Assembly: GCA_017480185.1 (NCBI GenBank)
Contig: JAFVBC010000008.1
Span: 114,889 to 178,888 of the forward strand
DNA: 64,000 nucleotides
DNA from: Bacteroidales bacterium
GTDB taxonomy: Bacteria; Bacteroidota; Bacteroidia; Bacteroidales; P3
Direction of reading: 5' to 3'
Position 1 is the first letter of the stretch, and every line of letters begins with the position of its first letter. Below are positions 29,074 through 51,491 of this stretch, piece by piece. The notes beneath the pieces are model-generated. The model was not told the DNA's origin, ran no database searches, and saw nothing but the letters and a program-made list of their open reading frames with translations. The position numbers and the translations under genes were made by a program.

Positions 29074-29327
29074 CCCACCCCTAACCCCTCCGAGGAGGGG
29101 AAGAAAATGAGGGTCGCAGGTGTGCTATAAAAACCTCCCCTCCCAGGAGGGAAAGAGAATGAGGGTTAATCTCAGTCGGGGAAGAAGATGAGGGATGCAG
29201 GTGTGCTATAAAAAACCTCCCCTCCTGGGAGGGGATAAAGGGGTGGGGTAGATGAGTTAGTTTTCGAGTGTACTATGCTGTGTGATAACCCACCCCTAAC
29301 CCCTCCGAGGAGGGGAAGGAAATGGGG
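29074..29327. repeat. Cluster of GC-tract hairpin repeats (CCCCTCC-N4-GGAGGGG) containing a G-quadruplex motif
   Basis: Four hairpin units at about 29085, 29139, 29220 and 29300. Two near-identical direct repeats, cccacccctaacccctccgaggaggggaag and gcaggtgtgctataaaaa(a)cctcccctcc. A canonical PQS, GGGAGGGGATAAAGGGGTGGGG, lies at 29228-29249. No ORF is supported. The 80-aa ORF 29172..29414 is a repeat artefact. Confidence 0.55.
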
Positions 29328-29428
29328 ACTTCTCTTTCCGTCTACTTTTTCTTTGCTCTGATGCAATAAATCACAACTTTTCATCGTTACACCGCAAAAA
29401 CATATCTGCAACAAAACTCATTCCGAAA

Positions 29429-33038: not shown

Positions 33039-33737
33039 ATGGCACGTAAAATCTTTTCGTGGGTGGCTTTAGTATTGCTTGAAGCTGTCTTGATTACGTC
33101 GTTTATAATTTTCGGTTCGGCAATGCCAACGGGTGTGCTGGTAACGGATATTGTTGTGTCAACAATAATCTTGGCATTACTCTTCATAGACATTATGATG
33201 CCGTGGCACACTGCCAACGATGGGGCTACGCAGCATCTGGGAGCAATGGGCGTGAGGTGGGTGGTAACAATTGTCTATGCCGTTGCCGCTATTGCTGTTA
33301 TGGTGTTGATGCAAAACTACTCGTTTACCACGCAGTTGCTCGTTCAGGGCGGTTTGCTCGCCGTGATGCTACTTGGCATGGCTGGTGTGTTTTCGAGCAA
33401 GGAAAAAATAGGACAGGTGTATCAACAGGAGTCAACCCAATTGAGCGACCGTGAGCAAGTACGTAGCGCTTGGCACACCACCGTAGAGAAGTTGATTGAT
33501 GGGCAGGGGATGCCAGAAGATGTTATAGAACGAGTAAAGGTTGTTGCTGAACAACTGCGGTATGTGTCGCCTTCGAATAGTGCACAGGCAAAGGAACTGG
33601 ACGAACAGTTGATTGCTTGCGCAGAGTCCCTGCGTAGGATGTCGGTGGACTATGAATTGAACAAAGAACGTGTTGCGGCGTATATAGACAAGGCGATGCG
33701 TCTGATTGAACAACGTAAAAGTGCATTTTCACGCTAA
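33039..33737 (+). CDS. Integral membrane protein (4 predicted TM helices plus a C-terminal helical cytoplasmic domain), function unknown
   Basis: 232 aa. Four hydrophobic segments in the first 125 aa and a charged helical tail. 45 nt downstream of the SPFH gene on the same strand. Confidence 0.55.
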   Translation: MARKIFSWVALVLLEAVLITSFIIFGSAMPTGVLVTDIVVSTIILALLFIDIMMPWHTANDGATQHLGAMGVRWVVTIVYAVAAIAVMVLMQNYSFTTQLLVQGGLLAVMLLGMAGVFSSKEKIGQVYQQESTQLSDREQVRSAWHTTVEKLIDGQGMPEDVIERVKVVAEQLRYVSPSNSAQAKELDEQLIACAESLRRMSVDYELNKERVAAYIDKAMRLIEQRKSAFSR

Positions 33738-33765
33738 TATTATCATAAACTAAAAAAAACAAAGT

Positions 33766-35754
33766 ATGCCCGGAAAGATTTTTCCCGAATCGGCCAATAT
33801 CTATCAAGATAAGGCTAAAGTGCTGTTTAACTATTACAGCCAAATGGCAGAGAAGATAGTGGCAGAAGAAGAACGTATAGAAGGCGAGATCTCCAAGCTT
33901 GAGAGTCTGCGCAAAGAAAAAGAACAGTCGTTGAGTAAACTCCTCATTCCGCTAATTATTCCATTTGCAATACTTATCGTCCCTATCTTTATTTATCTTG
34001 TTAAGAAGAAAAATCTGACAAAGGAAATTGCAGAGATAGACGTTAGACTTGACGAGTTTAGAAAACAACACAAAGAGATATTCCGCGATTATAAAGTTAA
34101 TAAACTTGGTGTCGCTTATGTGCCAGTTGCAGAACAGATAAAATACGAGGACAAAAGCTTCATTGTTGACTATACCAATTCGGTTAAAGAATCGAAGGTT
34201 ACACTTCAAATGTCTAACCAAAATGACCTTCTGGTACAGACTATCAATGAGATTGATAACTTGTCGGCCGATGCTCCTGTTACAGAAAGTTCGAATGAGA
34301 TAGAAACAGTTGAGACCGATGATTACTCGACATCAATTCAACAGATTAACCAACACGACTATTTTGGCAAGTTAGAGCGTTCGCTTCGCACTATAGGTTT
34401 CTGCCTTGACGATCTTGATGTCTCGTCGGTCAGTCTACCGTTGGTTGGTGAGGAGTCGGAATATCTTGGGTTCCTGCGTGAATATGCAACTGATGAAGTC
34501 CCCGAGGGCGCTCCTGTTGTGAAAGTATTCGACAAAGAGAGGTTCGAAAAGAGTATAAACAAGTTCCAAGAGTTGAATCGACTCAAAGACTCGTTGTCAA
34601 ATAAGACAGCCCAGTTTGAAGATGTGTTGAAAAACCTAATGGTGACTATGGCGCATTCAGTTCAGACTATATCGGCATTAAAGGTAGCCTCGGCAGACAA
34701 GGTGATATTCGAGTCAAATAAGTTGCTATATCAAATACTTAAAGCTCCATATAACCACTATTCGCCCCTGCTTGAGCACGATGAGATTGAGCGTATTCGT
34801 CAGGAGAAGTTCGACTTTACTGAAGATGTTCAAGGGTACGTGCCGTTCCAATTGAAGGAAAGTTCGAGGGTGAAATATAATTTGATAACTGGTATGTGGA
34901 CTGCTGAAGATGGTACAACCACGACAGTTCCTTTTGGTGTGCACCAAATATATGAGGAAATTGTGGCACCGGTGGTTCAAAATCTGATGCGCGAAACACG
35001 CATTGAACGCCTTAAAATATACAATCACATCAAAGATCAGAAGATTAGTTATTTGAATAAATGGAATCAAGATACCGATGCTTTCTACCGCGACAATAGG
35101 TCGGAGAGTAATAAGATAATCTCGGCCATGCAAGAAAGTCTACGTGAGTATACAGCTGCATATAACACGCTGGTATCTTTGCAACGTACAGAAGCCAACA
35201 TGGCTAAATCTGGTGGCGAACTTGATTCTACTTTGGTTGAGAGTAGCGACAATGTTGCAGAGACTGCAATGGCATTCGAAACACAGTCGCAGCAGTTCAA
35301 ACAGATTCAAAGCCAGTTTGAGGAGTATATGGATCGCTTGCAAGAGGACATCCGAGAGAAGGGCGAGAAGTTTGGCCATGTGGAATACTACGATGCTAAA
35401 TTGAGAGACGGTCATTCTAACGAAGAAGCTGTGGCTGCAGGTGAGGTAAATCAACTGGATAGCCGTCGCAAACCTTTGGCAGCAGCTAATCCACTTTTGG
35501 CTAAGACTGCCGAGATGTTGCCCACCCCCAATATTGATGAAATTACCTACGAATACCTTGAACTTGACCTTCCATCTCTTGCCAATGATGCATTGAATAG
35601 TCTTGGGGAAAAGGTTGAGGTGCTGCAACCAGAGGAAGAAACTTCTGAGGAGCTCAATGCAGAGGTTGATAATACCAGCGAAGTAAGCGTGGAAAATGAG
35701 GCAGTACAAGCAAACGACGATGAGGCTGCAGACGACACAGAGTCGGAGCAATAA
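33766..35754 (+). CDS. 662-aa protein with N-terminal coiled coil, one TM helix and a large acidic-tailed domain, function unknown
   Basis: Residues 1-55 are coiled-coil-like (EEERIEGEISKLESLRKEKEQ). The TM segment is LLIPLIIPFAILIVPIFIYLV. The protein ends in an acidic tail EEETSEELNAEVDNTSE...DDTESEQ. No P-loop or other catalytic motif was found. AT-rich codon usage. Confidence 0.55.
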   Translation: MPGKIFPESANIYQDKAKVLFNYYSQMAEKIVAEEERIEGEISKLESLRKEKEQSLSKLLIPLIIPFAILIVPIFIYLVKKKNLTKEIAEIDVRLDEFRKQHKEIFRDYKVNKLGVAYVPVAEQIKYEDKSFIVDYTNSVKESKVTLQMSNQNDLLVQTINEIDNLSADAPVTESSNEIETVETDDYSTSIQQINQHDYFGKLERSLRTIGFCLDDLDVSSVSLPLVGEESEYLGFLREYATDEVPEGAPVVKVFDKERFEKSINKFQELNRLKDSLSNKTAQFEDVLKNLMVTMAHSVQTISALKVASADKVIFESNKLLYQILKAPYNHYSPLLEHDEIERIRQEKFDFTEDVQGYVPFQLKESSRVKYNLITGMWTAEDGTTTTVPFGVHQIYEEIVAPVVQNLMRETRIERLKIYNHIKDQKISYLNKWNQDTDAFYRDNRSESNKIISAMQESLREYTAAYNTLVSLQRTEANMAKSGGELDSTLVESSDNVAETAMAFETQSQQFKQIQSQFEEYMDRLQEDIREKGEKFGHVEYYDAKLRDGHSNEEAVAAGEVNQLDSRRKPLAAANPLLAKTAEMLPTPNIDEITYEYLELDLPSLANDALNSLGEKVEVLQPEEETSEELNAEVDNTSEVSVENEAVQANDDEAADDTESEQ

Positions 35755-35788
35755 AGAATGTCAAAGTAGAAAGAAAGGACATTAAACT

Positions 35789-36700
35789 ATGGCAAGTATA
35801 GATTGTGTTGTCGACACCCAGCCGATGGCGCGTGAGATAGACAAAGTGTCTCACAATGTTAATCAGACCAAGAATGCCGTCATAGCAATGCAGATGGCGG
35901 TTATACAGGCAGAAAAAGAGGCCTCCGACCATGTGTGTAGCAAGGTTAACCTCGGTTTCTACACCATGATTCGCTCTCAAATATCGCAGAAGATGGCCAA
36001 ATTGCAAAGCGATGTAGACTCATTGCTTATGCAGTTGTCTTATCAACAAAAGCAATTGATGGCTATCAAAATGCGTATGGAACGCGATTATAACATGTTG
36101 CTTGTTAGGTACAACAAGCTTTTCAATGGGCTCAATCAAAACCTAAAGCAGCGTGTATACGAACTCGACCGTCCCACAATGGATTTTGCAGAAAACCAAG
36201 TGGAGCACATTACCAATCGTACAAAACTCATGACTGCTACCGTACCCTTGGGACAAACCGAGTCGGTCAGCCAAAGTCAGAAGATACTGGCTTCTAATGC
36301 CAAGTATCAAAGCAAGCGAGTCATCGATTCCATGACACGTTTCCTTTCCGATTTCAACGAACAGCGCCAACTCACTTCTACCATTCTGCTGGAAGGGAAA
36401 GCTCAGAATGGAGAGTGGTCGGTACCTGTTATTGTCATGCAGTCAAACGTCGATAAAAATGGCACATTGGTAGACCGCGTGTTGGTGAACGAGAATGCAA
36501 TGAGCACATCGATGCAACAGGCCGTTCGCAACACCTTCTCTGCTACCTCCGATGGTTTAGAGTGGAAGACAGCAACCCAGCCCGACAAAGAAACATCCAA
36601 CGAGTTTGCCAAACTTGTGGAGCGGTCCAATTTGAGCGACCGTGTAAAAAATCTTGTGTCGGAGATGTATCGTAACAACAATTATGCAACGCTTAAATAG
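35789..36700 (+). CDS. Coiled-coil cytoplasmic protein, paralogue 1 of a tandem pair, function unknown
   Basis: 303 aa. Alignable over its full length with the next gene, for example GFYTMIRSQISQ...MERDYN...LDRPTMDF against GFFKTVRSDISQ...MEVDYN...LDAPAFNF. No signal peptide or TM. Confidence 0.55.
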   Translation: MASIDCVVDTQPMAREIDKVSHNVNQTKNAVIAMQMAVIQAEKEASDHVCSKVNLGFYTMIRSQISQKMAKLQSDVDSLLMQLSYQQKQLMAIKMRMERDYNMLLVRYNKLFNGLNQNLKQRVYELDRPTMDFAENQVEHITNRTKLMTATVPLGQTESVSQSQKILASNAKYQSKRVIDSMTRFLSDFNEQRQLTSTILLEGKAQNGEWSVPVIVMQSNVDKNGTLVDRVLVNENAMSTSMQQAVRNTFSATSDGLEWKTATQPDKETSNEFAKLVERSNLSDRVKNLVSEMYRNNNYATLK

Positions 36701-36709
36701 CTCCCAGTC

Positions 36710-37720
36710 ATGAGTTACACAAGATCAGTTACAAAGACCATTGCAGTGCATTACTCGGGCTCGGTGAGTTATCCTGCTTCGCAAAATGGTGGCACTGTAG
36801 GATACAGTGGCACTGCCTACGAAAGCGTAACCGTGAATGTACATGTCGACACCCAATCTTTTGATGCCTCGACCGATCAGTGCGCTGGCAAGGTAGGGGT
36901 GCTGACAGGCGCAGTCGTTGCAACAAACGAAGCCCAAGTACTTTCCATCCGCGAAAACTCCAAAAAGGTGGGGCAGACCCTCATCAACGGTTTTTTCAAA
37001 ACGGTTCGCTCCGACATCAGTCAGCAAATAAACGAGCTGAAGAACATCGTTGAAGCAACTTTGCTCAAACTGCAGAGCGATGCCAAACGTTGCAACGAGA
37101 TGCAGCGTCAGATGGAGGTCGACTACAACCGCAAGTGTGTGCAATACATGCACATCTTTGACGATTTAGACAAAGAATTGCACAACCGTATAGTCAATCT
37201 TGATGCTCCCGCTTTCAATTTTGGTCGCGATGTCGACACCGTAAATTCGCGTCTTACCACAACCGATATGGTACCCGTGGTGGCTGTCTCTGGTGGCGAG
37301 AATATGCGTTTGCAAACGCAACTCTCGGTTACTGCCACCAAGCAGCGCGCTTACGATGCCATGGGCAAAGCGCGCCAATTCCTGCAAGTACAGAAAAATG
37401 CAGCCGATGCCATTGCCACCAACACCATTGCCGATGCCCCTCAGGGGCAGATACACCTACCTGTGTGCTACATCGAAGTGGTGAATGAACAAGACTGCCT
37501 TGAACGAAGTATAGAATGTTGCGACAAAATCGATGGCAACGCGCGTAAGATGTTGAGCGATCAGTTGCATAAAACCCAGTTTCCCAAAGCCAAAGAGGCA
37601 GAAAGTAACAAGGTACTCATGTATTTCAAAGAGGCTGTTGCACAGCGCCTCTCGGGAGGTAACGAACACGACGAACGTGTGTGCGAACAAATCATGAAAT
37701 TGTATAACAACAATCAATAG
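36710..37720 (+). CDS. Coiled-coil cytoplasmic protein, paralogue 2 with a roughly 40-aa N-terminal extension, function unknown
   Basis: 336 aa. Starts 9 nt after paralogue 1. Conserved blocks VDTQ, GF(Y/F)..(I/V)RS.ISQ and ME.DYN are shared with the upstream gene. Confidence 0.55.
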   Translation: MSYTRSVTKTIAVHYSGSVSYPASQNGGTVGYSGTAYESVTVNVHVDTQSFDASTDQCAGKVGVLTGAVVATNEAQVLSIRENSKKVGQTLINGFFKTVRSDISQQINELKNIVEATLLKLQSDAKRCNEMQRQMEVDYNRKCVQYMHIFDDLDKELHNRIVNLDAPAFNFGRDVDTVNSRLTTTDMVPVVAVSGGENMRLQTQLSVTATKQRAYDAMGKARQFLQVQKNAADAIATNTIADAPQGQIHLPVCYIEVVNEQDCLERSIECCDKIDGNARKMLSDQLHKTQFPKAKEAESNKVLMYFKEAVAQRLSGGNEHDERVCEQIMKLYNNNQ

Positions 37721-37727
37721 TAAGAAA

Positions 37728-38702
37728 ATGAAAGAACTTAAAGAAATAAGATTCAACGATAACAATGTGCTTTTGAAAGACAACCTAGTCAAGGGTCCAA
37801 TCATACCCGAACAGGTCTCTGAACTGACGCGCGACATCACCATCCAAGCCGACACCATTGTCGAGGGTGCAATTTATGCCCACCGACTTGAGGTGCAGAA
37901 TGGCGAGTGTGTGGTTAAGGGAGCAGTGTTTACCCAACTTGAGCTATATGTCAATGCCGATGCAAAGGGCAGTGTAACCTTTGAAAAGAGTGTGGGCTCG
38001 GTTGATAGCATTGTGTCGCGTGCATCTGGTTGCACCCTCTCGTTCATGTCCGACATCAACGCTCACAGTGTAACCCTCTACAACGCCTATGTGGCGGGTA
38101 GCATCTATGCCGATGAGGTGGTTCTTGAAAACTGTGTGGTTGTTGGAGGTGTGTTTGCATCACAGGGACTCGACATCAACAACTGTATTTTGGGCACATT
38201 TAACGCTCCCACAGTAAACATGTCTGGGTCAATCTTCCTGCTTTTGCCCTCGGCATTTTCGATAGAGAAAGCAGTTGTCGACCCCTCATGCAAGTTTTAT
38301 AACCTCAGTTTGGCCGACCTTGGGGCACTGTACAAAGGGTTGCCACAGGCCGAAAATTCGGGCAAGGTGAAACTTGATGTCGATGCCGACGAGGTAAAAA
38401 CAACCCTTTCTAACGACGAAATACAGAAAACCATTCGTAGCTATACCGTGGTTGGGAAAGTGTTGGCAGCAGATTTAATCGACACCGATAAGTTCCAAAA
38501 CCACTTCCTTATTGCAGCAGCATCGCTTGGCCCGCAGCTGTTGAAAACCTACGACTTGGGGACTGATAAGGGTGGCACTGCAGCAATGCTCACACCCGAG
38601 CGTATTCGCACCTTCTTTTTCGACATTCTTCATGGCAAGATAGAAGTGCAAGACATTGACGGACACTTTAGTATTAGCGATATAGCCCAACGCTACAAGT
38701 AG
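37728..38702 (+). CDS. Beta-helix-like repeat protein (Toastrack/bactofilin-like fold suspected), function unknown
   Basis: 324 aa. The central 200 aa show a short periodic pattern of alternating hydrophobics and Gly/Asn/Asp turns (ITIQADTIVEGAIYAHRLEVQNGECVVKGAVFTQLELYVNADAKGSVTF...). That pattern is typical of single-stranded beta-helices. Last gene before the strong terminator. Confidence 0.5.
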   Translation: MKELKEIRFNDNNVLLKDNLVKGPIIPEQVSELTRDITIQADTIVEGAIYAHRLEVQNGECVVKGAVFTQLELYVNADAKGSVTFEKSVGSVDSIVSRASGCTLSFMSDINAHSVTLYNAYVAGSIYADEVVLENCVVVGGVFASQGLDINNCILGTFNAPTVNMSGSIFLLLPSAFSIEKAVVDPSCKFYNLSLADLGALYKGLPQAENSGKVKLDVDADEVKTTLSNDEIQKTIRSYTVVGKVLAADLIDTDKFQNHFLIAAASLGPQLLKTYDLGTDKGGTAAMLTPERIRTFFFDILHGKIEVQDIDGHFSISDIAQRYK

Positions 38703-38724
38703 TCGTTCTTCATGTCGTGTCTAA

Positions 38725-38765
38725 ACGGGTGCGGTGGCAAAGATGCCACCGCACCCGTTTTTTAT
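38725..38765 (+). terminator. Strong rho-independent terminator closing the 31.7-38.7 kb operon
   Basis: ACGGGTGCGGTGGCA-aaga-TGCCACCGCACCCGT, a perfect 15-bp stem, followed by TTTTTTATTG. The ORF-track start (GTG 38734) of the next gene lies inside this hairpin and is therefore unlikely. Confidence 0.7.
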
Positions 38766-38811
38766 TGTCGAACAAAGCAATAATGACCTGTGTTTTGGGT
38801 TACTATACGCG

Positions 38812-40704
38812 ATGAACACGGCCAACTATTTCGCACAGTTGCGCAACCTTGTCGACAGCGAGCACCAGACCGAGACGCAAGAATTCGTGCAGCAGATTGC
38901 TAACCTCTGCCCCGACGGCACTGGCAAGATAGCACGCCCATCGTGTCGCTACCCTGTCCGTCTGATAGATGAGCGTCGCAACGCAATGAATCAATTTGTG
39001 TTGGGGGTGCTTTTTGATGCCGATAGCGACGATATTGAGCCCGATTTTGAACCAGGCAAGGCGGTTGTGTTTTTCTACTTTAATGGTGCTGAAGCCGTGG
39101 TTGCCACTGTAGCGGTGCAGGTTGAACGTGCCGATGCCAATGGTCTCGCTGTTATTGTTGCTCCCTCGGTGATGCAGCAACTGCAATCCTTGTCGGCACG
39201 CCATTTGCTTGGTATTCATCTGGCAGTCGACGACACTTCTTACCGTGTCATGCGCGATGCCCTGTCGGTAGCATCACAGGCCGACCGCAAAAGCTTCGTT
39301 GCTTTGCGCAACGTGCTTATTGGTGCCGTAGCGCCGACTCGTTCGCCACAACCCACACTTTCTTTTTCTTGGCTCAATGCTGCGCAGAACGCCGCCATAC
39401 AGATGGTGGCCGAGGCGCACGAGGTGGCCATTGTGCATGGACCTCCAGGCACGGGCAAAACCACAACACTGGTTGAGGCCATCATAGAGACACTTCGCCG
39501 CGAGCCTCAAGTGCTGGTGTGTGCCCCAAGTAATGCCGCTGTCGACTGGATTAGCGAGCAACTCATGCGACGTGGTGTGGCTGTGTTGCGGTTGGGAAAC
39601 CCTCTACGTGTGAGCGACACCATGCTGGAATGCAGCTACGAGCAACGTTATGTGGCTCATCCTGATTATCATGAGCTTTGGAATATTCGTCGTCGGCTGC
39701 ATGAGCAAAACGATGGCGAAACCGCACAACGGCTGAGACATCGACAGACCGAACTTGAGATAAAAATAGAGAACGACCTTTACGACCAGGCGCGAGTGGT
39801 GAGTGCCACCCTTGCTGGTGCCGCTATGCGTCTGCCCACTGGAAGGCGATTTGCCACACTTTTTATCGACGAGGCGGCTCAAGCCCTCGAACCCCTCTGC
39901 TGGGCAGCCCTGCTGCGCGCCGACCGTGTGGTCATGGGGGGCGACCATCAGCAGTTGCCACCTACGGTGAAAAGCATCAGTGCCGCCCGACAGGGATTGT
40001 CGACAACCCTAATGCAAAAGGTGGCTCAGTTGTGGCCCAATAGCGTATCTCTGCTCGACACCCAATATCGCATGCATGCCGACATTATGCAGTTTTCGTC
40101 GCAGTGGTTCTATGGCGGCCTACTGAAAGCACATCCGTCGGTAGCCGACCGCTTGGTTTCGCCAATCGACACCCCTCTGGTTTGGGTCGACACCAGCCGT
40201 TTGGGACTGGGCGAGCGCACAGGTGGGCATACGTCGCTGAGCAACATGGGCGAGGCTCGCTTGGTGATTCACACTCTGCGCGACTATATTGAGAGTCTTA
40301 CCCCCACCCTTATCGAAAGTCAACGCACCGATTTTGGCATCATCACCCCCTACCGCAGTCAGGCACGACTGTTGCGACGATTGCTGAAAATGCAACACTT
40401 CTTTCGTCGTTTGAAAGGCCTTATCACGGTGGGGACGGTCGACGGCTTCCAGGGGCGAGAGCGCGACGTTATAATCATCAGCCTGGTGCGCGACAACGAC
40501 AGCCACACCATTGGCTTTATGCGCGATTTGCGACGCATGAACGTGGCTATGACAAGGGCACGCATGAAACTTATCATCGTTGGCAACGCCACCACACTTG
40601 CCTCCAACAGGTTTTATGCTCGGTTGGCACAATATGTTGAAAAACAAGGAAAATTTATAACACTTACACCCTATGAAGACAGTCAAAAAGAAAACCCAGC
40701 TTGA
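38812..40704 (+). CDS. SF1B helicase of the Upf1/IGHMBP2 (DNA2/NAM7) family
   Basis: Motif I is VHGPPGTGKTTTL, motif II is FIDEAAQ and motif III is GDHQQLPP. Motif IV is YRMH, motif V is TVDGFQGRERDVIIIS and motif VI is VAMTRARMKLIIVGN. A roughly 200-aa N-terminal beta-barrel-like domain precedes the helicase. The first ATG after the terminator is at 38812 (MNTANYF...). Confidence 0.8.
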   Translation: MNTANYFAQLRNLVDSEHQTETQEFVQQIANLCPDGTGKIARPSCRYPVRLIDERRNAMNQFVLGVLFDADSDDIEPDFEPGKAVVFFYFNGAEAVVATVAVQVERADANGLAVIVAPSVMQQLQSLSARHLLGIHLAVDDTSYRVMRDALSVASQADRKSFVALRNVLIGAVAPTRSPQPTLSFSWLNAAQNAAIQMVAEAHEVAIVHGPPGTGKTTTLVEAIIETLRREPQVLVCAPSNAAVDWISEQLMRRGVAVLRLGNPLRVSDTMLECSYEQRYVAHPDYHELWNIRRRLHEQNDGETAQRLRHRQTELEIKIENDLYDQARVVSATLAGAAMRLPTGRRFATLFIDEAAQALEPLCWAALLRADRVVMGGDHQQLPPTVKSISAARQGLSTTLMQKVAQLWPNSVSLLDTQYRMHADIMQFSSQWFYGGLLKAHPSVADRLVSPIDTPLVWVDTSRLGLGERTGGHTSLSNMGEARLVIHTLRDYIESLTPTLIESQRTDFGIITPYRSQARLLRRLLKMQHFFRRLKGLITVGTVDGFQGRERDVIIISLVRDNDSHTIGFMRDLRRMNVAMTRARMKLIIVGNATTLASNRFYARLAQYVEKQGKFITLTPYEDSQKENPA

Positions 40705-41407
40705 ACGTGTCGTATTGCTCGGTGTGGCTCTGTTTGCATCAGCAACCGTTTGGGGACAGACCAATGTGCAAGAGATGTACGACTTTAATCGTGGCCACTT
40801 GGTAACAACCGTCGAGGCTTTCCACGCCGACCCCTGGGGCAATACGTTTCTTTTCACCGACATCTACCACCCTGCCGACGTCGATGTCCCCACATCGTTC
40901 TACACCGAGATTGGACGCACCATAAGCATCGGTCAAACAGGTTGGGGCATTCATCTTGAATGGAACGGCGGAAACTTTGCCAACAACGCATTTATGGCCG
41001 GTGTGGATTATTCAATTCACAATGCCGACTTTAGCAACGTCTTCACCTTCCGCCTTATGTACAAGCATGTGCAGGGGGGCACCATGATTTCGCCTTTGCA
41101 GGCCACATTTGTGTGGAATATGAACGGTCTGTTCGGGGTGCAAGGACTGCAGTTTACGGGCAACATTGACTGGTGGCACGAAGAGGTCGCCTTTCCCGGG
41201 CACGAGCCAAACAAAGTGGGGGTATTCCTGTCCGAGCCACAGGTGTGGTACAACATAGGCAGACACTTTGGTTGCCCCAACCTTAACGTGGGAGGCGAGC
41301 TGCGCATAGGCTACAACTTTGCTGGCAACTGGCACAGTGGTGCCGACTTCGAACTTAACCGTGGGTTTGCAGTCGCTCCATGTCTTGGAGCCAAGTGGGC
41401 ATTCTGA
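40673..41407 (+). CDS. Secreted outer-membrane beta-barrel-like protein, function unknown
   Basis: 244 aa. Signal peptide MKTVKKKTQLERVVLLGVALFASATVWGQ. Aromatic/Gly-rich alternating pattern and a C-terminal ...GAKWAF typical of OM beta-barrels. Overlaps the helicase 3' end by 32 nt in another frame. Confidence 0.5.
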   Translation: MKTVKKKTQLERVVLLGVALFASATVWGQTNVQEMYDFNRGHLVTTVEAFHADPWGNTFLFTDIYHPADVDVPTSFYTEIGRTISIGQTGWGIHLEWNGGNFANNAFMAGVDYSIHNADFSNVFTFRLMYKHVQGGTMISPLQATFVWNMNGLFGVQGLQFTGNIDWWHEEVAFPGHEPNKVGVFLSEPQVWYNIGRHFGCPNLNVGGELRIGYNFAGNWHSGADFELNRGFAVAPCLGAKWAF

Positions 41408-41463
41408 TTTCGAGGCGTAAGAGGATGCCTTGATGGGCGCCTCACAAACACATTATCTTCGCA

Positions 41464-41545
41464 TCAAGTAAGGCCGTTCTTCAGTCGTTCTTCAGTCAAC
41501 GACTGAAGAACAACTGAAGAACGACTGAAGAACGGCCTTACTTGA
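41464..41545. repeat. Intergenic nested palindromic repeat, copy C; near-perfect 82-bp palindrome
   Basis: TCAAGTAAGGCCGTTCTTCAGtcGTTCTTCAGTCAACGACTGAAGAACaaCTGAAGAACgaCTGAAGAACGGCCTTACTTGA. It has perfect 21-bp outer arms. Inner arms are 2x GTTCTTCAG and 3x CTGAAGAAC around a CAAC centre. Confidence 0.65.
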
Positions 41546-41672
41546 TACCTATTTGACACACTGCTGATGGTTACTTCCAACACCCTATTCGTAGTGGTAG
41601 AGTTGGGATGGGACAAAATCGAACGGCATCGCCCACACAATAATCCTTGCCGCTATCCGTTTTTGGTGAAAG

Positions 41673-42590
41673 ATGATAACTCCTCCGTTTTTGAAAAAGG
41701 GCGATGCTGTGGGCTTGGTGGCAACGGCTCGGGCTGTCGACGAGAGCATTGTTGAGGCAGCTCGTAACGTCTTTGAATCGTGGGGTCTGCGGGTTGTGGT
41801 GCCCGACGATGTGTATGCGCAGTATGGCCAGTTGGCAGGCGACGACAACCTTCGCGCTTGTGCCATGCAGAGCATGCTGGACGACGACAGTGTGCGCGCT
41901 GTTGTGGCTCTGCGGGGTGGCTATGGCACGGTGCGAATCATAGACCGTTTGGACTTTTCGCGATTTATGCAAAATCCCAAATGGCTGGTTGGTTACAGCG
42001 ACTTTACGGTGATGCACTGCCATTTGCAGCAGGTGCTTGGTGTGGAGTCGATCCATGCCGTGATGCCAGTCAATTTTCCAGAATGCGACGACGATAGTGT
42101 GGCTCTGTGCTCGTTGCGTCGTGCGCTGTTTGGCGAAGCTGACTGTTATGAGGTTGAGCCATCGGCCATCAATCGAGAGGGTACGGCCGAAGGCGTTGTG
42201 GTTGGGGGAAATTTGTCGGTGATTTATAGTCTGCTGGGGTCGGTTTCGGCACCCGACACACGAGGAAAAATACTGCTTGTAGAAGATCTTGACGAGTATA
42301 TCTACCACATTGACCGCATGATGCAAAACCTGTTGCGCAACGGCATGCTCGATGGTTTGCAAGGACTGATAGTGGGTGGGCTCACTCAGATGCACGACAA
42401 TGCTATGCCCTTTGGCCGAACGGCTCGGCAGGTGGTGCGCGACGCTGTTGAGAGGTTTAACTACCCAGTGCTTTTCGATGCTCCGTTTGGCCATATTGGA
42501 GCCAGTAACCGTGCACTTCTTTTAGGCTCAAACATAAGGCTCGAAAGTAGCACCGACAAGATGTGTCATATAACACCTGTGGCATGCTGA
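41673..42590 (+). CDS. ldcA: LD-carboxypeptidase (peptidase S66, muramoyltetrapeptide carboxypeptidase)
   Basis: 305 aa with conserved blocks LKKGDAVGLVA, ALRGGYGTVRI and VGYSDFTVMH that include the catalytic Ser-containing motif. Confidence 0.8.
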   Translation: MITPPFLKKGDAVGLVATARAVDESIVEAARNVFESWGLRVVVPDDVYAQYGQLAGDDNLRACAMQSMLDDDSVRAVVALRGGYGTVRIIDRLDFSRFMQNPKWLVGYSDFTVMHCHLQQVLGVESIHAVMPVNFPECDDDSVALCSLRRALFGEADCYEVEPSAINREGTAEGVVVGGNLSVIYSLLGSVSAPDTRGKILLVEDLDEYIYHIDRMMQNLLRNGMLDGLQGLIVGGLTQMHDNAMPFGRTARQVVRDAVERFNYPVLFDAPFGHIGASNRALLLGSNIRLESSTDKMCHITPVAC

Positions 42591-43906
42591 CAGTGTTTGT
42601 TCCCAAACTTACCAACAGGGTGGGCTACACGTTGAAGGTGTTGTTCACTCGGTTGATGCGTGTTGACTATTGCATCACCACCGACGCTGCTCATTTTGCC
42701 ACCCTCACCACACCGACGCTCTGTTATGCGCCAGAGAGGGTAGGGCAGGGAGTGTACCTAAAAAGTTGTAACCTGCTGTTTTCCACCACTATCGAAGAGC
42801 AACGGTTGCAGTGTAGAAAAGAGGCCGACGGGGTGATAATGTTTCCTGTCTATGGCGGTGGAACCGACTTGCCCTTCGACCCGTTGGCGGCCATTTTCTT
42901 CATGATAAGTCGTTACGAGGAGTATCTGCCATTCAAACTTGACGCTCATGGGCGCTTTGGTGTGCAACAGAGCGTGGCTTACCGCGAGGACTTTGTGATG
43001 CAGCCTGTTGTTGAACAATGGGGAGAACGCATTGCCGAGTTGCTGCGCCGCCATTTCCCAGAACTGAAAATTGTGCACCGACAATTCATGTATTTGCAAA
43101 CAATCGATATTGATGCGGCGTGGTGCTATAAGCACAAGGGGTTTGGACGCAACATGGCAGGATTGGTGCGCGACGCTGTGAAACCCAACTCATGGCCACG
43201 TGTTGTGCAACGGCTGAGGGTTATGTTGCGGCGTGAACCCGACCCATTTGACACCTACGACTTCATAATCAGCCATAGTCCGCGTAAAGTGGGTGGCCAT
43301 CTGTTGTTTTTTGCTTTGGTGGCCGACTACGACCACTATGATAAACCCATATCGCATCTTGAGCCACATCTGCGCCACTTGATGATGCATCTCGGCGACT
43401 ATGCAAAGATTGGTCTGCACCCGGGCTACTACACCATGGAGCAGCCATCGCAATTTGATGTTGAAAAACAGCGGCTTGAGGCTATGTTGCACCGCAATGT
43501 GCTTCGCTCGCGGTTTCATTATCTCCGCATGCGATTGCCATACGCCTACCGCATACTGTTGCACGCAGGTGTGCAAACCGACTATTCAATGGGCTTTGCC
43601 GACGGTAGTGGCTTTAGGGCGGGCATAAGCATTGCTTACCCTTTTTTTGATTTGGAACGAGATATTGAAACCACGCTTGATATACAGCCATTTTGCACAA
43701 TGGACACGTCGCAGCGGATGTATCAAGGCTTAACGGCCGACGAGGCGGTGCAGCAGAGCAGGTCGTTGATTGATGAACTGAAAACTACGGGCGGTACGTT
43801 CTGCTCGGTGTGCCACAATCAAAATCTTTCGGCTTTTGAGGGGTGGGAACCCTGGCGAGAGGCATATGCAGATGTGGCAAAATATGCCATTGCTGCTATG
43901 CAATGA
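42584..43906 (+). CDS. Hypothetical protein, possibly polysaccharide-deacetylase-family-like
   Basis: Preferred ATG at 42584 (MLTVFVPKLTNRVGYTLKVLF...) rather than the GTG at 42563. This N-terminus resembles Bacteroidales proteins annotated as polysaccharide deacetylase family. I cannot verify the catalytic motifs. Confidence 0.45.
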   Translation: MLTVFVPKLTNRVGYTLKVLFTRLMRVDYCITTDAAHFATLTTPTLCYAPERVGQGVYLKSCNLLFSTTIEEQRLQCRKEADGVIMFPVYGGGTDLPFDPLAAIFFMISRYEEYLPFKLDAHGRFGVQQSVAYREDFVMQPVVEQWGERIAELLRRHFPELKIVHRQFMYLQTIDIDAAWCYKHKGFGRNMAGLVRDAVKPNSWPRVVQRLRVMLRREPDPFDTYDFIISHSPRKVGGHLLFFALVADYDHYDKPISHLEPHLRHLMMHLGDYAKIGLHPGYYTMEQPSQFDVEKQRLEAMLHRNVLRSRFHYLRMRLPYAYRILLHAGVQTDYSMGFADGSGFRAGISIAYPFFDLERDIETTLDIQPFCTMDTSQRMYQGLTADEAVQQSRSLIDELKTTGGTFCSVCHNQNLSAFEGWEPWREAYADVAKYAIAAMQ

Positions 43907-43922
43907 ACTGTATGATAATTAG

Positions 43923-44453
43923 TTGATGCCTATGATTAACTATAAGCAAAAACTTGCGCCGATAAGGGCGTTTGTGTTCGACTTTGATGGTGTGATGACC
44001 AATGGCGATGTGTGGATTACGCCCGATGGGCAAACCATGCGTCGCGGAAGTAGCAAAGATGGCTATGCTTTGCAATATGCGGTGCGTCAAGGCTACCATG
44101 TGGCCGTGATAACTGGTGCCAACGCTCAATGCATAGAACATAGGATGCGCTCGTTGGGGGTGGAAGACGTGTTTACTGGTTGTGCCGATAAACGTCGGGC
44201 TTATAATGCCTTTTTGAATAAATATGGACTGAAAGATGAGGAGGTGCTGTGCATGGGCGACGACATTCCCGACCTACCCTTGTTGCGCCTTGTAGGGGTG
44301 GCAACCTGCCCGGCCGATGCTGCTGTTGAGGTTAAAGAAAGGGTTGATTATATCTCTTTGTTGGAAGGTGGTAAGGGCTGTGTGCGCGATGTGATAGAAC
44401 AGGTGATGCGTCTGCATGGCAAGTGGATGTCCGACCAGGCTGAGATATGGTAA
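43923..44453 (+). CDS. kdsC: 3-deoxy-D-manno-octulosonate-8-phosphate phosphatase (HAD-IIIA)
   Basis: 176 aa. HAD motif I is VFDFDGVMTNG. The C-terminus has GDDIPDLP and a conserved KGG motif. Confidence 0.8.
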   Translation: MMPMINYKQKLAPIRAFVFDFDGVMTNGDVWITPDGQTMRRGSSKDGYALQYAVRQGYHVAVITGANAQCIEHRMRSLGVEDVFTGCADKRRAYNAFLNKYGLKDEEVLCMGDDIPDLPLLRLVGVATCPADAAVEVKERVDYISLLEGGKGCVRDVIEQVMRLHGKWMSDQAEIW

Positions 44454-45232
44454 GGCGCATTTTGTTGACTGCACTGATGTGCGTGATGGTGGCGGTGTGC
44501 GCCGAGGCGCAGAACTACTCTGTCAACGACACCACTACGGAGTACCCCAACAAGGGCACTTTCTATCACGACCGCTTTGAGGGACGAAAAACAGCCTCGG
44601 GCGAGGTGTTTGATCAGAACAAATTCACCGCAGCCCACTGGAGGATAAAACTTGGAACGATGATTCTTGTAACCAATAGAAACAGCGGGAAGCAGGTGAT
44701 AGTAAAGGTGAACGACCGTTGCCCTAAACACGGGGTGATAGACCTCAGCCATCGTGCCGCTGTTAGTATTGGCATAAAAGGTTGTCAGCCTGTAACAGTG
44801 AGGATTTTGCCCTCAGGATATGAGGAACGATGGATGGCTCAGGACACTGTGTTTGACTCGGTTAGTTCACGTTTGGTAAAACTTGCCTCTCCGCAATCTG
44901 CAGCGCGCAAAGAATCCAAAACGGAAAAACTAACCGAAAAAGACAAGTCAGAAGAAAAAGTAGACCTTGAAAAAGATAGTATAGTATCAAAGTTAGAACC
45001 CTCGGTTAACTGCAGAATTGTGCTGTGCACTGTCGCGTCGCACAGTGAGGCATTCGACAAGGTGCAATCCCTGCCCGAATTATATCGGCAACGGGTTATT
45101 GTTGAACCGATTGACTCGTCGGAGCAACTTGACTTAATCCTACCGTTGACGCTGCCACTGAGTAGGGCTCGGGAACTGGCCAAGGCATTGTCCCACACTT
45201 TCGGTCAGTGTAAGTTGGAGGTGAATGATTGA
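44447..45232 (+). CDS. rlpA: Septal ring lytic transglycosylase RlpA-family protein (DPBB domain plus C-terminal SPOR domain)
   Basis: Signal peptide, then DPBB core ...GEVFDQNKFTAAHWRIKLGTMILVTNRNSGKQVIVKVNDRCP... A C-terminal SPOR-like roughly 80 aa follows. 7-nt overlap with kdsC. Confidence 0.75.
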   Translation: MVRRILLTALMCVMVAVCAEAQNYSVNDTTTEYPNKGTFYHDRFEGRKTASGEVFDQNKFTAAHWRIKLGTMILVTNRNSGKQVIVKVNDRCPKHGVIDLSHRAAVSIGIKGCQPVTVRILPSGYEERWMAQDTVFDSVSSRLVKLASPQSAARKESKTEKLTEKDKSEEKVDLEKDSIVSKLEPSVNCRIVLCTVASHSEAFDKVQSLPELYRQRVIVEPIDSSEQLDLILPLTLPLSRARELAKALSHTFGQCKLEVND

Positions 45233-45294
45233 AAATAGAGTGTGCACAACGGTTTTGGACTGCAAAAAAAAATAAACAAATAGAGAAATATTTA

Positions 45295-45302
45295 TATCTT
45301 TG
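45295..45302 (+). promoter_or_regulatory. Candidate -7 promoter box (TATCTTTG) for the porPKLMN operon
   Basis: Perfect TAnnTTTG match 45 nt upstream of the porP ATG, in a 114-bp non-coding gap. Confidence 0.3.
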
Positions 45303-45346
45303 CACATTCATACCCATGTGAATAAATTGCGAATGATTTATTAAGC

Positions 45347-46420
45347 ATGAGTTTTGAATGTGTTGAAAAACAATATATTGTGTTGCCGGTCGACAGACAT
45401 CAAGTGCGCAGGCAAAGGCTGAAATTGATTGTTGTTTCGGCTCTTGTGATGCTATTTGCCCCTTGCGTAAAAGCGCAGAACGAGGGTCAATACACGCATT
45501 TTATGTTTAATCGGTTGAGTTATAACCCGGCCTACGCAGGCAGTTCGGGCTCAATATCGCTCACGGCTTTATATCGCAATCAGTGGATGGGTTTGACTCT
45601 GCAGCCCACGGTGTTGGGTGAGGAAGCAGGAACGACACCAACCAATATGCTTTTCAGTTTTGATATGCCAGTGTCGGTGTTGCATGGCGGTTTGGGCTTG
45701 ACTGTGAATTCAGAAAAGTATGGATTCCACAACAACTTGAATATCGACATTGATTATGCTTTCAGAATTTTTTGGGGACCTGGCAATTTGGCTGCAGCAA
45801 TAGAAGCAAATCTGTATAGTTACCAGTTTGATAAAAGCAATCTGCATGGGTCGAGCGACCTTTCGGGGCGTATACTTGACCCGACTGTCACTACAACCGA
45901 CCCCGTGCTTGGAGGGAGCGAGTCGTCGTTTATGATTGATTTTTCGACAGGTTTGTACTATCAAGTGCCCAGTGTTTACTATGTTAGCCTGTCGGTAAAG
46001 AATCTGCTTGGCTCTTCGAATGATGATTTGGGAGTTAAAAATGTGCGTACGCTTTATCTTATGGCTGGATATGAGTACAACTTCCCCTATAACCCATCGT
46101 TCACAATTAAGCCATCAATGCTTGTAAAGGCTGCAGGCTTTTCGGCTTTTCAAGCGGATGTGGCCTGTTTGATTGATTATGAGAACATTTTTTGGGGTGG
46201 ACTTGGCTATCGTTGGGGAGATGCTTTCACTTTCATGGGTGGTTTGAACTTCTTGAAAGTGATGCAGGTGGGCATCGCTTACGACCTAACCACATCGAGG
46301 CTCGGCTTTGGTGGAGGACGGAGTATTGGGTCGGCAGAGATATATTTGAATGCAAGTTTCCAAATAACAATACCAAAGAAAGCACCGTCGGTTAATAGGA
46401 ACACCAGATACTTGTTGTGA
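45347..46420 (+). CDS. porP: T9SS membrane protein PorP/SprF family
   Basis: The N-terminal mature region ...QNEGQYTHFMFNRLSYNPAYAGSSG matches the PorP/SprF signature (Q..QFSQYMFN....NPAYAG). 357 aa from the ATG at 45347. An in-frame GTG at 45404 would give a cleaner signal peptide VRRQRLKLIVVSALVMLFAPCVKA. Confidence 0.7.
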   Translation: MSFECVEKQYIVLPVDRHQVRRQRLKLIVVSALVMLFAPCVKAQNEGQYTHFMFNRLSYNPAYAGSSGSISLTALYRNQWMGLTLQPTVLGEEAGTTPTNMLFSFDMPVSVLHGGLGLTVNSEKYGFHNNLNIDIDYAFRIFWGPGNLAAAIEANLYSYQFDKSNLHGSSDLSGRILDPTVTTTDPVLGGSESSFMIDFSTGLYYQVPSVYYVSLSVKNLLGSSNDDLGVKNVRTLYLMAGYEYNFPYNPSFTIKPSMLVKAAGFSAFQADVACLIDYENIFWGGLGYRWGDAFTFMGGLNFLKVMQVGIAYDLTTSRLGFGGGRSIGSAEIYLNASFQITIPKKAPSVNRNTRYLL

Positions 46421-46485
46421 AAAAAGACGGTGAAAATGAAACATTTTTGAGAAAAACCCGTTTAGAAAACAAAAACCAGGATAAT

Positions 46486-47847
46486 ATGAAGAAGTTGTTT
46501 TTCATTCTCGCAGCGTCGACAGCAATGCTCTGCGCTTGCAGTTCTTCCAATAATGGAGAACTGACAGGTGTGGCCAATCGCCCTTACTTTGAGGATATTG
46601 ACCTCAAGGGAATGGTGTTTGTCAACCAAGGAAATTACACCATGGGCGCTGGTACACAAGATGTGACCTACGGCAAGACAACGCAGCCCCGCAAAATGCA
46701 GATTGAGTCATTCTTTATGGATGAAACCGAGATTACAAACAATGAATATCGTCAGTTTGTATATGCTGTGCGCGACTCGGTGGCCCGTCGCATTCTTGGA
46801 GATGCTGGTATCGATGGCTTTATCATTGAAGAAGATAAGTATGGTGAGCCACTTGATCCACCCATCTTGAACTATAAGACAAAAATTAACTTCAATGATG
46901 TTGATGTGCGTCAGGCGTTGATCGACGGTGGTTTCTATGTCACTGATATTAACCATCGTAAGGCTCTTGATGTGTCGAAGATGAATTATGAGTATTATTT
47001 CATCGATTATAATGATGTCTCGAAGAAGGAAAACGGTGTGAATGCTCGCGCCGAACATAAGGGCACTTCGTTCGCCGTTCGTCCAAAAGGATTGAACAAT
47101 CGTGCTTCTCAAATTCAGAGGGAGTATGTGAATATCTACCCCGACACACTTTGCTGGGTCCACGACTATGCTTACAGCATGAATGAGGACTATACTCGTA
47201 ACTACTTCTCGTCGCCAGCTTATGACAATTACCCTGTTGTCGGTGTGAGTTGGAGACAGGCTAAAGCTTTCTGCGTATGGCGCTCGAACATGCTGAATCA
47301 GTATCTTGAGAATATCGACTATTCGCAACTTAATGACTTCCGTCTGCCGACCGAGAGTGAATGGGAGTTTGCTGCCCGTGGTGGAATTGCTGCTCAAAGT
47401 TATCCTTGGGGCGGACCGTACGTGAGAAATCCCAATGGCTGTTTCTTGGCAAACTATGAACCTTTGAGAGGCGCTTACGACGACGATGGTGGTGTCCGCA
47501 CACTCATGGTTGGCCACTATGCTCCTAATGACTATGGCTTGTATGATATGGCTGGTAACGTCAGTGAGTGGTGTTTGGATGCCTATAATGAGTCAACGTA
47601 CATTGTCGCAAACGCTATTACCCCCTACTATAATTACGATGCGAAAGACGATGATCCACTGGCTATGAAACGCAAAGTGGTTAGAGGTGGTAGTTGGAAA
47701 GACCAAAAGTACTATATCCAAGTTCAAACTCGCACCTACGAGTTTATGGATACTGCAAAATGTTACATTGGTTTCCGTTGCGTGCAGCCTTATTTGGGTC
47801 GTGTGAAGGGTGATAACCTACGCACAGCTTCAAACGTGGCGAGATAA
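46486..47847 (+). CDS. porK: T9SS lipoprotein PorK/GldK (formylglycine-generating-enzyme-like fold)
   Basis: Lipoprotein signal MKKLFFILAASTAMLCAC at the ATG at 46486. The ORF-track start 46417 is GTG. FGE/SUMF1-like C-terminal motifs include VVRGGSWKD. Confidence 0.8.
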   Translation: MKKLFFILAASTAMLCACSSSNNGELTGVANRPYFEDIDLKGMVFVNQGNYTMGAGTQDVTYGKTTQPRKMQIESFFMDETEITNNEYRQFVYAVRDSVARRILGDAGIDGFIIEEDKYGEPLDPPILNYKTKINFNDVDVRQALIDGGFYVTDINHRKALDVSKMNYEYYFIDYNDVSKKENGVNARAEHKGTSFAVRPKGLNNRASQIQREYVNIYPDTLCWVHDYAYSMNEDYTRNYFSSPAYDNYPVVGVSWRQAKAFCVWRSNMLNQYLENIDYSQLNDFRLPTESEWEFAARGGIAAQSYPWGGPYVRNPNGCFLANYEPLRGAYDDDGGVRTLMVGHYAPNDYGLYDMAGNVSEWCLDAYNESTYIVANAITPYYNYDAKDDDPLAMKRKVVRGGSWKDQKYYIQVQTRTYEFMDTAKCYIGFRCVQPYLGRVKGDNLRTASNVAR

Positions 47848-47911
47848 GATAATCTCAAAAGCTTATATTGAATAACATAATCTATTAACAACTATAAACA
47901 AAAGCTAAATT

Positions 47912-48805
47912 ATGAGTTTTATTAACAGGCTCGTTCGTAGTAAAGCATACAAAACATTCATGGGATACCTTTATGGTATCGGTGCTGCCGTTGTGATTGT
48001 GGGTGCTCTGTTCAAAATTAACCACTGGCCTGGTGCAACGTTAATGCTTATTATGGGTATGGGTACAGAGGCTGTTATATTCGTTCTATCTTCGTTTGAG
48101 CCGCCACATAAGGAGTGGGACTGGAGTTTGGTGTACCCCGAATTGGCTGGCATGATTGAACAGCCAGGAGGTGAAGGCTTGAATGTTGAACCAATGGTTG
48201 ACGAGAATGGTAATATTATTGAAAATGCAGAAGGCGAGGTGGCTCAACCTGTGAGTAAGGATCCTCTTACGGCACAACTTGATAAAATGCTCGAAGATGC
48301 TAATATCAGTCCCGAACTCATTGACCGTTTAGGCCAGGGAATGCAGAATCTTGCTGAAAGTGCCAATTCTATGAACAATATGGCGACAGCTACTGCTGCT
48401 ACTGACAAGTTTGTAAGCAATATGGATGGTGTTGCCGATCAGGCTGGTAAGTTGTTGCAAAGCATGCAAGGCGCACCTGAAGCAGTCTCTACGCTCTCTT
48501 CTATCTATCAGGAAACAGCCCAATCGTTGAATGGGGAAATATCCTATGTTGATGAGATGAAGAAGATGACCGCAAGTTTGAGCTCGATCAATGCAATGTA
48601 TGAGATGCAGATAAACAATGCTTCTACACAGTTGACATTGAACAAAGAGTTTGAGGAGAAAATGGGTACGATGCTTAGCAACTTCACGGATTCAGCCGAT
48701 GGTATCATGAAGTATAAAGAACAAGTAGATGCCCTGACTCGCAAGGTGGCTGAATTGAACAACGTGTATGGTAACATGTTGGCTGCTATGCAGACAAGAA
48801 TATAG
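47912..48805 (+). CDS. porL: T9SS/gliding motility protein PorL/GldL
   Basis: 297 aa. Two N-terminal TM helices (YGIGAAVVIVGALFKI, ATLMLIMGMGTEAVIFVLSSF) then a cytoplasmic helical domain. Operon position between porK and porM. Confidence 0.75.
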   Translation: MSFINRLVRSKAYKTFMGYLYGIGAAVVIVGALFKINHWPGATLMLIMGMGTEAVIFVLSSFEPPHKEWDWSLVYPELAGMIEQPGGEGLNVEPMVDENGNIIENAEGEVAQPVSKDPLTAQLDKMLEDANISPELIDRLGQGMQNLAESANSMNNMATATAATDKFVSNMDGVADQAGKLLQSMQGAPEAVSTLSSIYQETAQSLNGEISYVDEMKKMTASLSSINAMYEMQINNASTQLTLNKEFEEKMGTMLSNFTDSADGIMKYKEQVDALTRKVAELNNVYGNMLAAMQTRI

Positions 48806-48854
48806 AGAGAGAAAGACAACAACACACCTAACGCACAGCTAAACTAGATTTAAT

Positions 48855-50519: not shown

Positions 50520-50542
50520 AAACAATAGTAATACATATCGTT

Positions 50543-51421: not shown

Positions 51422-51446
51422 TGTGTGAAACTTTGAAACCAAACAA

Positions 51447-51487
51447 AGAGAGTTAAGAGAGAGATACTCTTAACTCTCTTCTATTTT
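51447..51487 (+). terminator. Rho-independent terminator between porN and its paralogue
   Basis: AGAGAGTTAAGAG-agagata-CTCTTAACTCTCT, a perfect 13-bp stem, followed by TCTATTTTAATT. Confidence 0.55.
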
Positions 51488-51491
51488 AATT

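Follow-up and report, generated by a model that had tools for sequence, protein, structure and literature searches.

The window analyzed here (the whole stretch of 64,000 nt) contains three intergenic copies of a palindromic repeat element, all in the same orientation, which a repeat search placed at 5506–5623 (copy A), 28919–29036 (copy B), and 41448–41565 (copy C). Copies A and B each lie between two divergently transcribed genes; copy C lies between two co-directional genes and precedes a same-strand string (41673–52367) that is headed by ldcA and continues with DUF7033, HAD, DPBB, porP, gldK, gldL, gldM, and two gldN genes. The neighboring genes are those named in the initial annotation (lptF/addA-like, ruvB/usp, and ldcA). 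The features are listed below.

4288–5442 (− strand) and 5726–8935 (+ strand): divergent neighbors of copy A, encoding an lptF/G-like permease and a UvrD-PD(D/E)XK AddA-like helicase-nuclease
5506–5623 (no strand assigned): copy A, full element, reference copy of the 118-nt family
5535 and 5546: TTCTTCAG units in the left arm of copy A
5561, 5572, and 5583: CTGAAGAA units in the right arm of copy A
5515–5520 and 5605–5610: GTAGGG and CCCTAC of copy A
27770–28789 (− strand) and 29429–30268 (+ strand): ruvB and usp, divergent neighbors of copy B
28919–29036 (no strand assigned): copy B, full element, 86% identical to copy A
28948 and 28959 (left); 28974, 28985, and 28996 (right): units of copy B
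28928–28933 and 29018–29023: GTAGGG and CCCTAC of copy B
40673–41407 (+ strand) and 41673–42590 (+ strand): co-directional neighbors of copy C, a DUF5020 gene and an S66 LD-carboxypeptidase gene (ldcA)
41448–41565 (no strand assigned): copy C, 81% identical to copy A, without the left outermost unit
41463–41496 (+ strand): left arm of copy C, consisting of the outer unit ATCAAGTAAGGCCG and then two TTCTTCAGTNN units (41477–41484, 41488–41495); these 34 nt are 100% complementary to 41513–41546
41496–41502 (no strand assigned): 7-nt core TCAACGA of copy C, invariant in copies A, B, and C; the inner register turns its AAC into a 3-nt loop
41503–41546 (+ strand): right arm of copy C, consisting of three CTGAAGAA units (41503, 41514, 41525) and then CGGCCTTACTTGAT
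41547–41556 (+ strand): right outermost unit of copy C, ACCTATTTGA, a decayed CCCTACTTGA

The three copies represent one 118-nt family. An invariant 23-mer core (TTCTTCAGTCAACGACTGAAGAA) was present exactly three times in the window, as compared to no occurrence in 100 shuffles, and the 8-mer TTCTTCAG was present 18 times (1.9 expected). Fifteen of these 18 occurrences are the 2 + 3 units of copies A to C, in agreement with the earlier claims of a three-copy palindromic family and of a half-site found 2 + 3 times per copy; the three occurrences outside the elements represent no enrichment over the 1.9 expected in the window, and a role as a DNA-uptake sequence was rejected on these grounds. 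The repeat period is exactly 11 nt (Tandem Repeats Finder). A profile search with nhmmer found no further copy in the window, and matches in the window together with ~780 kb of related loci were the elements themselves only. GC skew was positive over the whole window, which places the three same-orientation copies on one replichore; three copies are too few for their orientation to be interpreted.

Each arm of the element is a tandem array of ~11-nt units without self-complementarity, and the two arms are inverted copies around the core TCAACGA. In the window's lineage, each arm presents two tiers, with ATCAAGTARGG-type units outside and TTCTTCAGTNN units inside; the outer units, which include GTAGGG/CCCTAC, were found almost solely within elements. 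The left arm of copies A to C has two inner units and the right arm has three, so that two pairing registers are possible. In copies A and B, the inner register is perfect, with 23-nt arms, a 3-nt loop, and one unit bulged out; in copy C, the outer register is perfect, with 34-nt arms and 16 nt between them, and the inner register (23-nt arms and 3-nt loop) is also present, so that the 21 bp initially assigned to its perfect arms is an underestimate. The outermost tier of copy C is found on the right side only, where it reads ACCTAT. Both strands of all three copies are predicted to form very stable hairpins, with −52 to −70 kcal/mol and z = −8 to −14.6 for RNA, and z = −11 to −14.7 for DNA.

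Searches for known signals and for traces of transposition were negative. With Rfam 15 at the gathering threshold, the only match in the window was a tRNA gene (978–1052, − strand) and none fell on the elements; in E-value mode, the surroundings of copy C gave only sub-threshold miRNA-hairpin look-alikes, which we judged spurious. A terminator scan found no hairpin with a U-tract at copies A to C, and a scan for sigma-70-type promoters, which does not cover Bacteroidota promoters, found none in these copies. No parent IS or Y1 transposase gene was found in the window or beside the related loci examined. Other features of the window include two T9 runs split by GCGTGGCTG directly after copy B (29034–29072, + strand), and a same-strand block (33039–40704) of five ORFs without a Pfam match (232, 662, 303, 336, and 324 aa) followed by an AAA_11/AAA_12 (Upf1-like) helicase gene, which could represent an uncharacterized system, for example one related to defence. 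A giant ORF of 3959 aa is located at 13109–24988 (− strand); the near-identical product encoded on another contig of the species (L003, see below) has 3944 aa and carries GEVED and Por_Secre_tail domains, indicating that the giant ORF encodes a T9SS-secreted surface protein.

Among 185,579 species representatives, the core 23-mer matched one genome, the Bacteroidales MAG RGIG5037 from roe-deer rumen (L001), whose copy is 89% identical over ~100 nt and adjoins a second repeat family, which is also found beside copy B. This second family is built from a G+C-rich hairpin, CCCCTCC-NNN-GGAGGGG, and a tail of CCCACCCC/GGGGTGGG; the window contains six of its sites, as compared to 0.02 expected, and the family is located at 29069–29330 and 63692–63964 of the window as well as in L001 (3100–3500), L004 (1–360), and L006 (140–520). 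Several of its sites are terminator-like on the − strand according to the terminator scan. A block of ~114 nt (29140–29235 plus spacer) is found once in the window and in tandem in L006 (two copies) and L004 (at least three), and in RGIG5037 the second family forms a tandem array of ~59-nt units right beside the TTCTTCAG element. It is this second family that looks like the genome's true REP/BIME-like family.

Exact matches to proteins of the window's species all came from ruminant metagenome assemblies (XIEF21 samples and Logan runs), and the contigs recovered through these proteins either stay within the window or end at repeats. Identity to the closest non-self homologue of LdcA is no higher than 61%, so that the lineage stands isolated in databases and close relatives for an empty-site comparison are missing. 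Copy C is identical in L008, the one scaffold that spans it; four short-read contigs break off within it or at its boundary (L002 at 41504, L007 at 41489, L010 at 41527, and L009 at 41556), and the start of L009 falls exactly on the boundary of the right outermost unit. Copy B in another sample (L006) presents the same unit numbers and one SNP. Unit numbers of copies B and C are identical across three samples, and no presence/absence polymorphism was seen, as all contigs from other samples that span either copy contain it with unchanged unit numbers; phase variation was rejected because of the constant unit numbers.

The RuvB encoded on one contig, L003 (1–9763), is identical to that of the window, and the contig follows the window with 99.94% colinearity until position 29026 within copy B, where the match ends. 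From there on, L003 presents a different element arm (GTAGGGCTCAAGTAGGGCAT), followed by a 250-aa ORF and FtsK instead of usp. This junction may result either from recombination between two element copies or from a chimeric assembly join at the repeat; whichever the cause, it implies a fourth element locus in the species. Identity across these unrelated loci (window, L001, and the distal arm of L003) is 81–89% over ~118 nt, and conservation between loci spans all 118 nt, including the parts outside the units.

These additional copies bear on how the ends of the element are to be read. The terminal inverted repeats CATCAAGTAGGG...CCCTACTTGATG are intact in copies A and B, L001, and L003, and are found on the right side only in copy C, whose right outermost unit ACCTATTTGA matches the right end of the L001 copy exactly. 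In copies A and B, L001, and L003, GTAG is confined to the outer unit CAAGTAGGG; the inner unit and copy C carry GTAA. The flanking inverted repeat GTAGGG...CCCTAC, which copies A and B were thought to have acquired, is therefore probably not an acquisition, as it belongs to the second-tier unit ATCAAGTARGG and is also present in L001 and L003. Similarly, the view of copies A and B as decayed versions of copy C is probably wrong, A and B being the fuller two-tier form and C the one without the left outer unit. Target-site duplications, which the initial annotation proposed to look for, were not found: no direct repeat of 2–10 nt abuts the ends of the five copies (A, B, C, L001, and L003).

Metagenome contigs were also scanned with the pattern TTCTTCAGTNNTTCTTCAGTC, which demanded two perfect units; at least 120 stretches matched, and about half of the matches listed were coincidental Glu/Lys-rich coding sequence. 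Among the matches listed, at least 36 unique loci present the same kind of hairpin, (TTCTTCAGTNN)n, a 7-nt core, and (NNACTGAAGAA)m, with n and m between 1 and 4. The contigs carrying these core-type hairpins have a GC content of 46–58% and encode T9SS cargo, gingipain-like C25 peptidases, and S46 peptidases, indicating that the hosts are Bacteroidota. The initial annotation regarded a functional element as unlikely if only three copies existed and relatives had none; the copies in RGIG5037, the fourth locus, and the >35 core-sharing metagenome loci do not fit this scenario. All core-type hairpins listed are intergenic. Crude ORF calls assigned ~13 of 19 classifiable loci to co-directional, 5 to divergent, and 1 to convergent contexts. 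The neighboring genes mostly represent diverse housekeeping functions (NIF3, GlnS, LepA, MnmA, a histidine kinase, GmrSD, and others), and no transposase or regulator gene recurred at the core-type loci examined; only T9SS cargo paralogues did. Approximately 8 of 33 core-type loci abut T9SS cargo genes (Por_Secre_tail or CHU_C) on the 5′ or 3′ side (L041, L047, L075, L076, L086, L105, L114, and L087/L119), which possibly represents non-random placement.

The window profile aligns with the core-type relatives in its central part only, and their outer flanks differ, although the outer units of one locus (L082) are intermediate. The core-type hosts showed one element per contig, versus three per 64 kb in the window, so that the composite 118-nt form seems to have been amplified specifically in the window's lineage. 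In viral contigs, three patterns recovered no elements (the three matches were Glu/Lys-rich coding sequence), and plasmids in PLSDB gave no match. We found no description of this element family in the literature, which does not prove that none exists. Soil-type contigs with a GC content of 65–73% carry a different hairpin family, which shares the 8-mer and the 11-nt period but has the opposite polarity. It reads (GGACTGAAGAA)2–3, loop, (TCCTTCTTCAG)2–7, is bounded by GACTCCACGTACGAG / CTCGTACGTGGAGTC, and was found at L011, L013, L016, L017, L027, L031, L034, L061, L064, L065, L068, L077, L079, L096, L107, L115, L117, and L125; the search pattern may have brought up the shared 8-mer by coincidence, or the 8-mer may hint at a wider recognition of the duplex.

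Comparison of the 36 elements among the matches listed indicates how the hairpin changes over time. The period is always 11 nt, or 22 nt where a unit has decayed, and in 22 of the 36 elements one arm has one unit more than the other; 10 elements have arms of equal unit number, and in the other 4 the difference is two units. In-register 3-nt spacers, of which there are six types, were perfectly complementary in 27 of 43 cases, as compared to 11.5 (maximum 20) in 2000 shuffles; a coupled change of both arms is also seen in the window, with TTG/CAA in copy A versus TAT/ATA in copy B. Unit sequence is nearly perfect next to the loop and no better than random at unit 5, with the first two positions partly fixed by the search pattern. 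Some elements carry one variant throughout one arm and another throughout the other (L040/L060/L108, with TGTCCAG versus CTGAAGAA, and also L083 and L032), which points to homogenization of units within an arm. At one orthologous site, where the flanking proteins are 76–91% identical, four plus three perfect units in L099 compare with a decayed 2 + 4 form in L024/L120; at another, L032 and L090 (82% identical) differ by one unit and a point change. The central AAC reads GTT in L001, relative to the asymmetric outer arms, which is compatible with inversion of the spacer.

Within-arm homogenization, co-variation of spacers, and change in unit number together fit replication slippage combined with fold-back template switching. 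Template switching is a documented route by which perfect stems are created and maintained (PMC8794818), and the available parts of the quasipalindrome literature (PMC8794818, PMC8604942, PMC7202029) describe it as also inverting spacers. Slippage is not fast, given that copies B and C have the same unit numbers in all three samples.

We consider the best explanation to be a DNA-level, REP/MITE-like dispersed palindrome, a mirrored minisatellite shaped by slippage and hairpin-templated copying, and assign this reading a probability of roughly 0.55. Under the proposed mechanism, unit number would shift in 11-nt steps by replication slippage, each arm independently, yielding the 2 + 3, 3 + 2, and 4 + 3 forms; units would become homogenized within an arm; complementarity between the arms would be kept or made by fold-back (hairpin-templated) template switching near the tip; and outer units would decay. 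Dispersal to new loci would be a further step, for which a trans-acting transposase and recombination are candidate agents. Judged by sequence comparison, the ancestral TTCTTCAG hairpin is widespread in Bacteroidota, and the 118-nt composite form appears to have spread to at least four unrelated intergenic sites in the rumen Bacteroidales lineage. The element marks breakpoints of synteny and of assembly. Any effect on neighboring genes, through an RNA hairpin or a cruciform, is probably incidental.

A role at the RNA level would mean that UTR transcripts contain the hairpin, which would then serve, as has been proposed for REPs, to terminate transcription, to insulate, or to determine mRNA stability. 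Such a role would account for the very stable RNA hairpins, for the location of many co-directional core-type elements 17–100 nt past the upstream stop codon (e.g., L099), and for the T-runs that follow some copies (e.g., copy B). We nevertheless regard this role as unlikely. Two of the three window copies and ~5 of the 19 classifiable loci lie between divergent starts, with only one locus in a convergent context, and the elements do not present the G+C-rich stem and U-run 3′ of a gene expected of an intrinsic terminator, copies A and B being placed between divergent starts and no U-tract following the stem directly. In co-directional contexts, G-U-dependent stability favored the sense strand in four cases and the antisense strand in six and was equal in two; the TCA form of the loop was found on the sense strand in eight cases and on the antisense strand in five; hairpin stability and loop polarity thus show no bias to the transcribed strand. 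With this lack of bias, the divergent-start placement, and the missing U-tract, a terminator or stabilizer role is a minority possibility, and the decay of the element in one lineage at an orthologous site and the lack of an Rfam family match also argue against an RNA-level role. Classical non-autonomous transposition, by which an IS transposase reading the CATCAAGTAGGG ends would move a MITE or a RAYT reading a GTAG hairpin would move a REPIN, is very doubtful. The intact terminal inverted repeats of A, B, L001, and L003, the GTAG inside CAAGTAGGG, and the dispersal to unrelated intergenic sites are what such an origin would leave behind, Porphyromonas gingivalis, also a member of the Bacteroidales, has MITEs with internal minisatellites (PMC4596501), and RAYTs cleave at GTAG beside hairpins (PMC3733652). 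Set against this are the lack of flanking direct repeats at any of the five copies, of a parent IS or Y1 transposase in the window or beside related loci, and of presence/absence polymorphism among strains, as well as arms that are not self-palindromic REP units and core-type relatives with quite different ends.

The alternatives that involve a binding protein start from the constancy of the 8-mer. Spacing of the 8-bp TTCTTCAG sites is strictly 11 bp, which would place them on one helix face, mirrored around the loop, and the 8-mer is constant while the spacers (T-N-N) and the loop vary across >35 loci; such constancy across hosts may be due to protein recognition and not to common descent, although it is partly an ascertainment effect, as the search pattern demanded two perfect units. 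A phased binding array read by a putative regulator, nucleoid/partition-like protein, or domesticated transposase would also fit the retention of the element at orthologous sites, the ~8 of 33 loci beside T9SS cargo genes, and the position of copy C ahead of the ldcA...porP-gldKLMN string. We find this array improbable, since simpler sites are lacking elsewhere (3 TTCTTCAG outside the elements versus 1.9 expected), all 118 nt are conserved between copies, including the non-unit parts, neighboring genes are mostly unrelated in function, and outer units decay freely; the first three of these also speak against a transcription-factor operator array, whose motif would recur as simpler sites at other regulated promoters and would be the only conserved part. 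An extended form of the idea, which we hold to be just as improbable, would make the TTCTTCAG hairpin a functional, Bacteroidota-wide cis element, with identical 8-bp sites phased at 11 bp, close to one helical turn, and mirrored round a conserved polar loop (TCA-NNN-A), of which the window's lineage amplified a composite version. The putative protein reading it might be a domesticated transposase, a structure-specific DNA-binding protein, or a dsRNA-binding factor, and the element would perhaps be tied to T9SS cargo genes.

The DNA-level, dispersed palindrome has practical and general implications. Palindromes of this kind break short-read assemblies, which explains fragmented rumen Bacteroidales MAGs, and the elements are usable as strain markers. 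The family represents a natural series of hairpins with minisatellite arms in which slippage, homogenization, and template switching can be read from sequence, and it bears on how REP-like repeats arise and remain palindromic. If it were true that a protein recognizes the 8-mer, the hairpin would represent a new cis element in a phylum that is abundant in gut and rumen.

REP and REPIN elements are found in tens to hundreds of copies per genome, for example in E. coli and Pseudomonas, and are mobilized by RAYT Y1 transposases. The element resembles them in being intergenic and multi-copy, in forming as a whole a hairpin of ~100 nt with a GTAG motif near each end, and in acting as a hotspot of recombination or assembly breakage; all copies are extragenic, with three in 64 kb plus the fourth locus, and one per contig in other hosts. 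However, a REP unit is an imperfect palindrome of ~20–40 nt with a GTAG tag at one end (PMC3733652), whereas the arms of the element are tandem 11-nt units rather than short GTAG-tagged palindromes; in addition, two of the three copies lie between divergent starts and not at 3′ ends, the host belongs to Bacteroidota, and no RAYT (IS200/IS605-like Y1 transposase) gene was found among the immediate neighbors examined. As for MITEs, the element has terminal inverted repeats and presents neither a target-site duplication, a parent IS, nor presence/absence polymorphism. The initial proposal of a REP-like element, a decayed MITE, or a regulator-binding array thus holds in its general sense of a REP/MITE-like dispersed hairpin, while assignment to REP/REPIN or MITE in the strict sense does not, and the case for a regulator array is weak.

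The nearest taxonomic analogue is represented by the BrickBuilt/PgRS MITEs, which share a Bacteroidales host, a strictly intergenic location, and an internal minisatellite with variable unit number. BrickBuilt elements, present in ~19 copies per P. gingivalis genome, have a non-repetitive leader and a non-repetitive tail that enclose tandem direct repeats of 23 nt, with the IS5-like ends GAGACCTTCGCA / TGAAAGGTCTC (GAGACC...), and the direct repeats of BrickBuilt/PgRS are 23 or 41 nt long (PMC4596501). The element described here differs from them in its 11-nt unit, its mirrored arrays, its other ends, and the lack of a known IS partner, and is not a member of this group. In architecture, the nearest analogue is BOX of Streptococcus pneumoniae, which the available part of the source (PMC3049150) describes as boxA-boxB(n)-boxC with modules of ~45–60 nt, and which is likewise modular and intergenic, with a variable number of internal modules and a stable structure; on that description, BOX has no sequence or taxonomic kinship with the element, and its modules do not form a mirror-image tandem array. 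Template-switch quasipalindromes, as far as the available parts of that literature describe them, resemble the element in their coupled arm changes and in a stem that is perfect next to the loop, but template switching is a mutational process and not an element family, and would explain maintenance, not dispersal. Set beside these systems, the element is a small interspersed repeat of an ordinary kind with an unusual build, and what is noteworthy about it is the mirrored 11-nt minisatellite architecture together with its wide occurrence in Bacteroidota.
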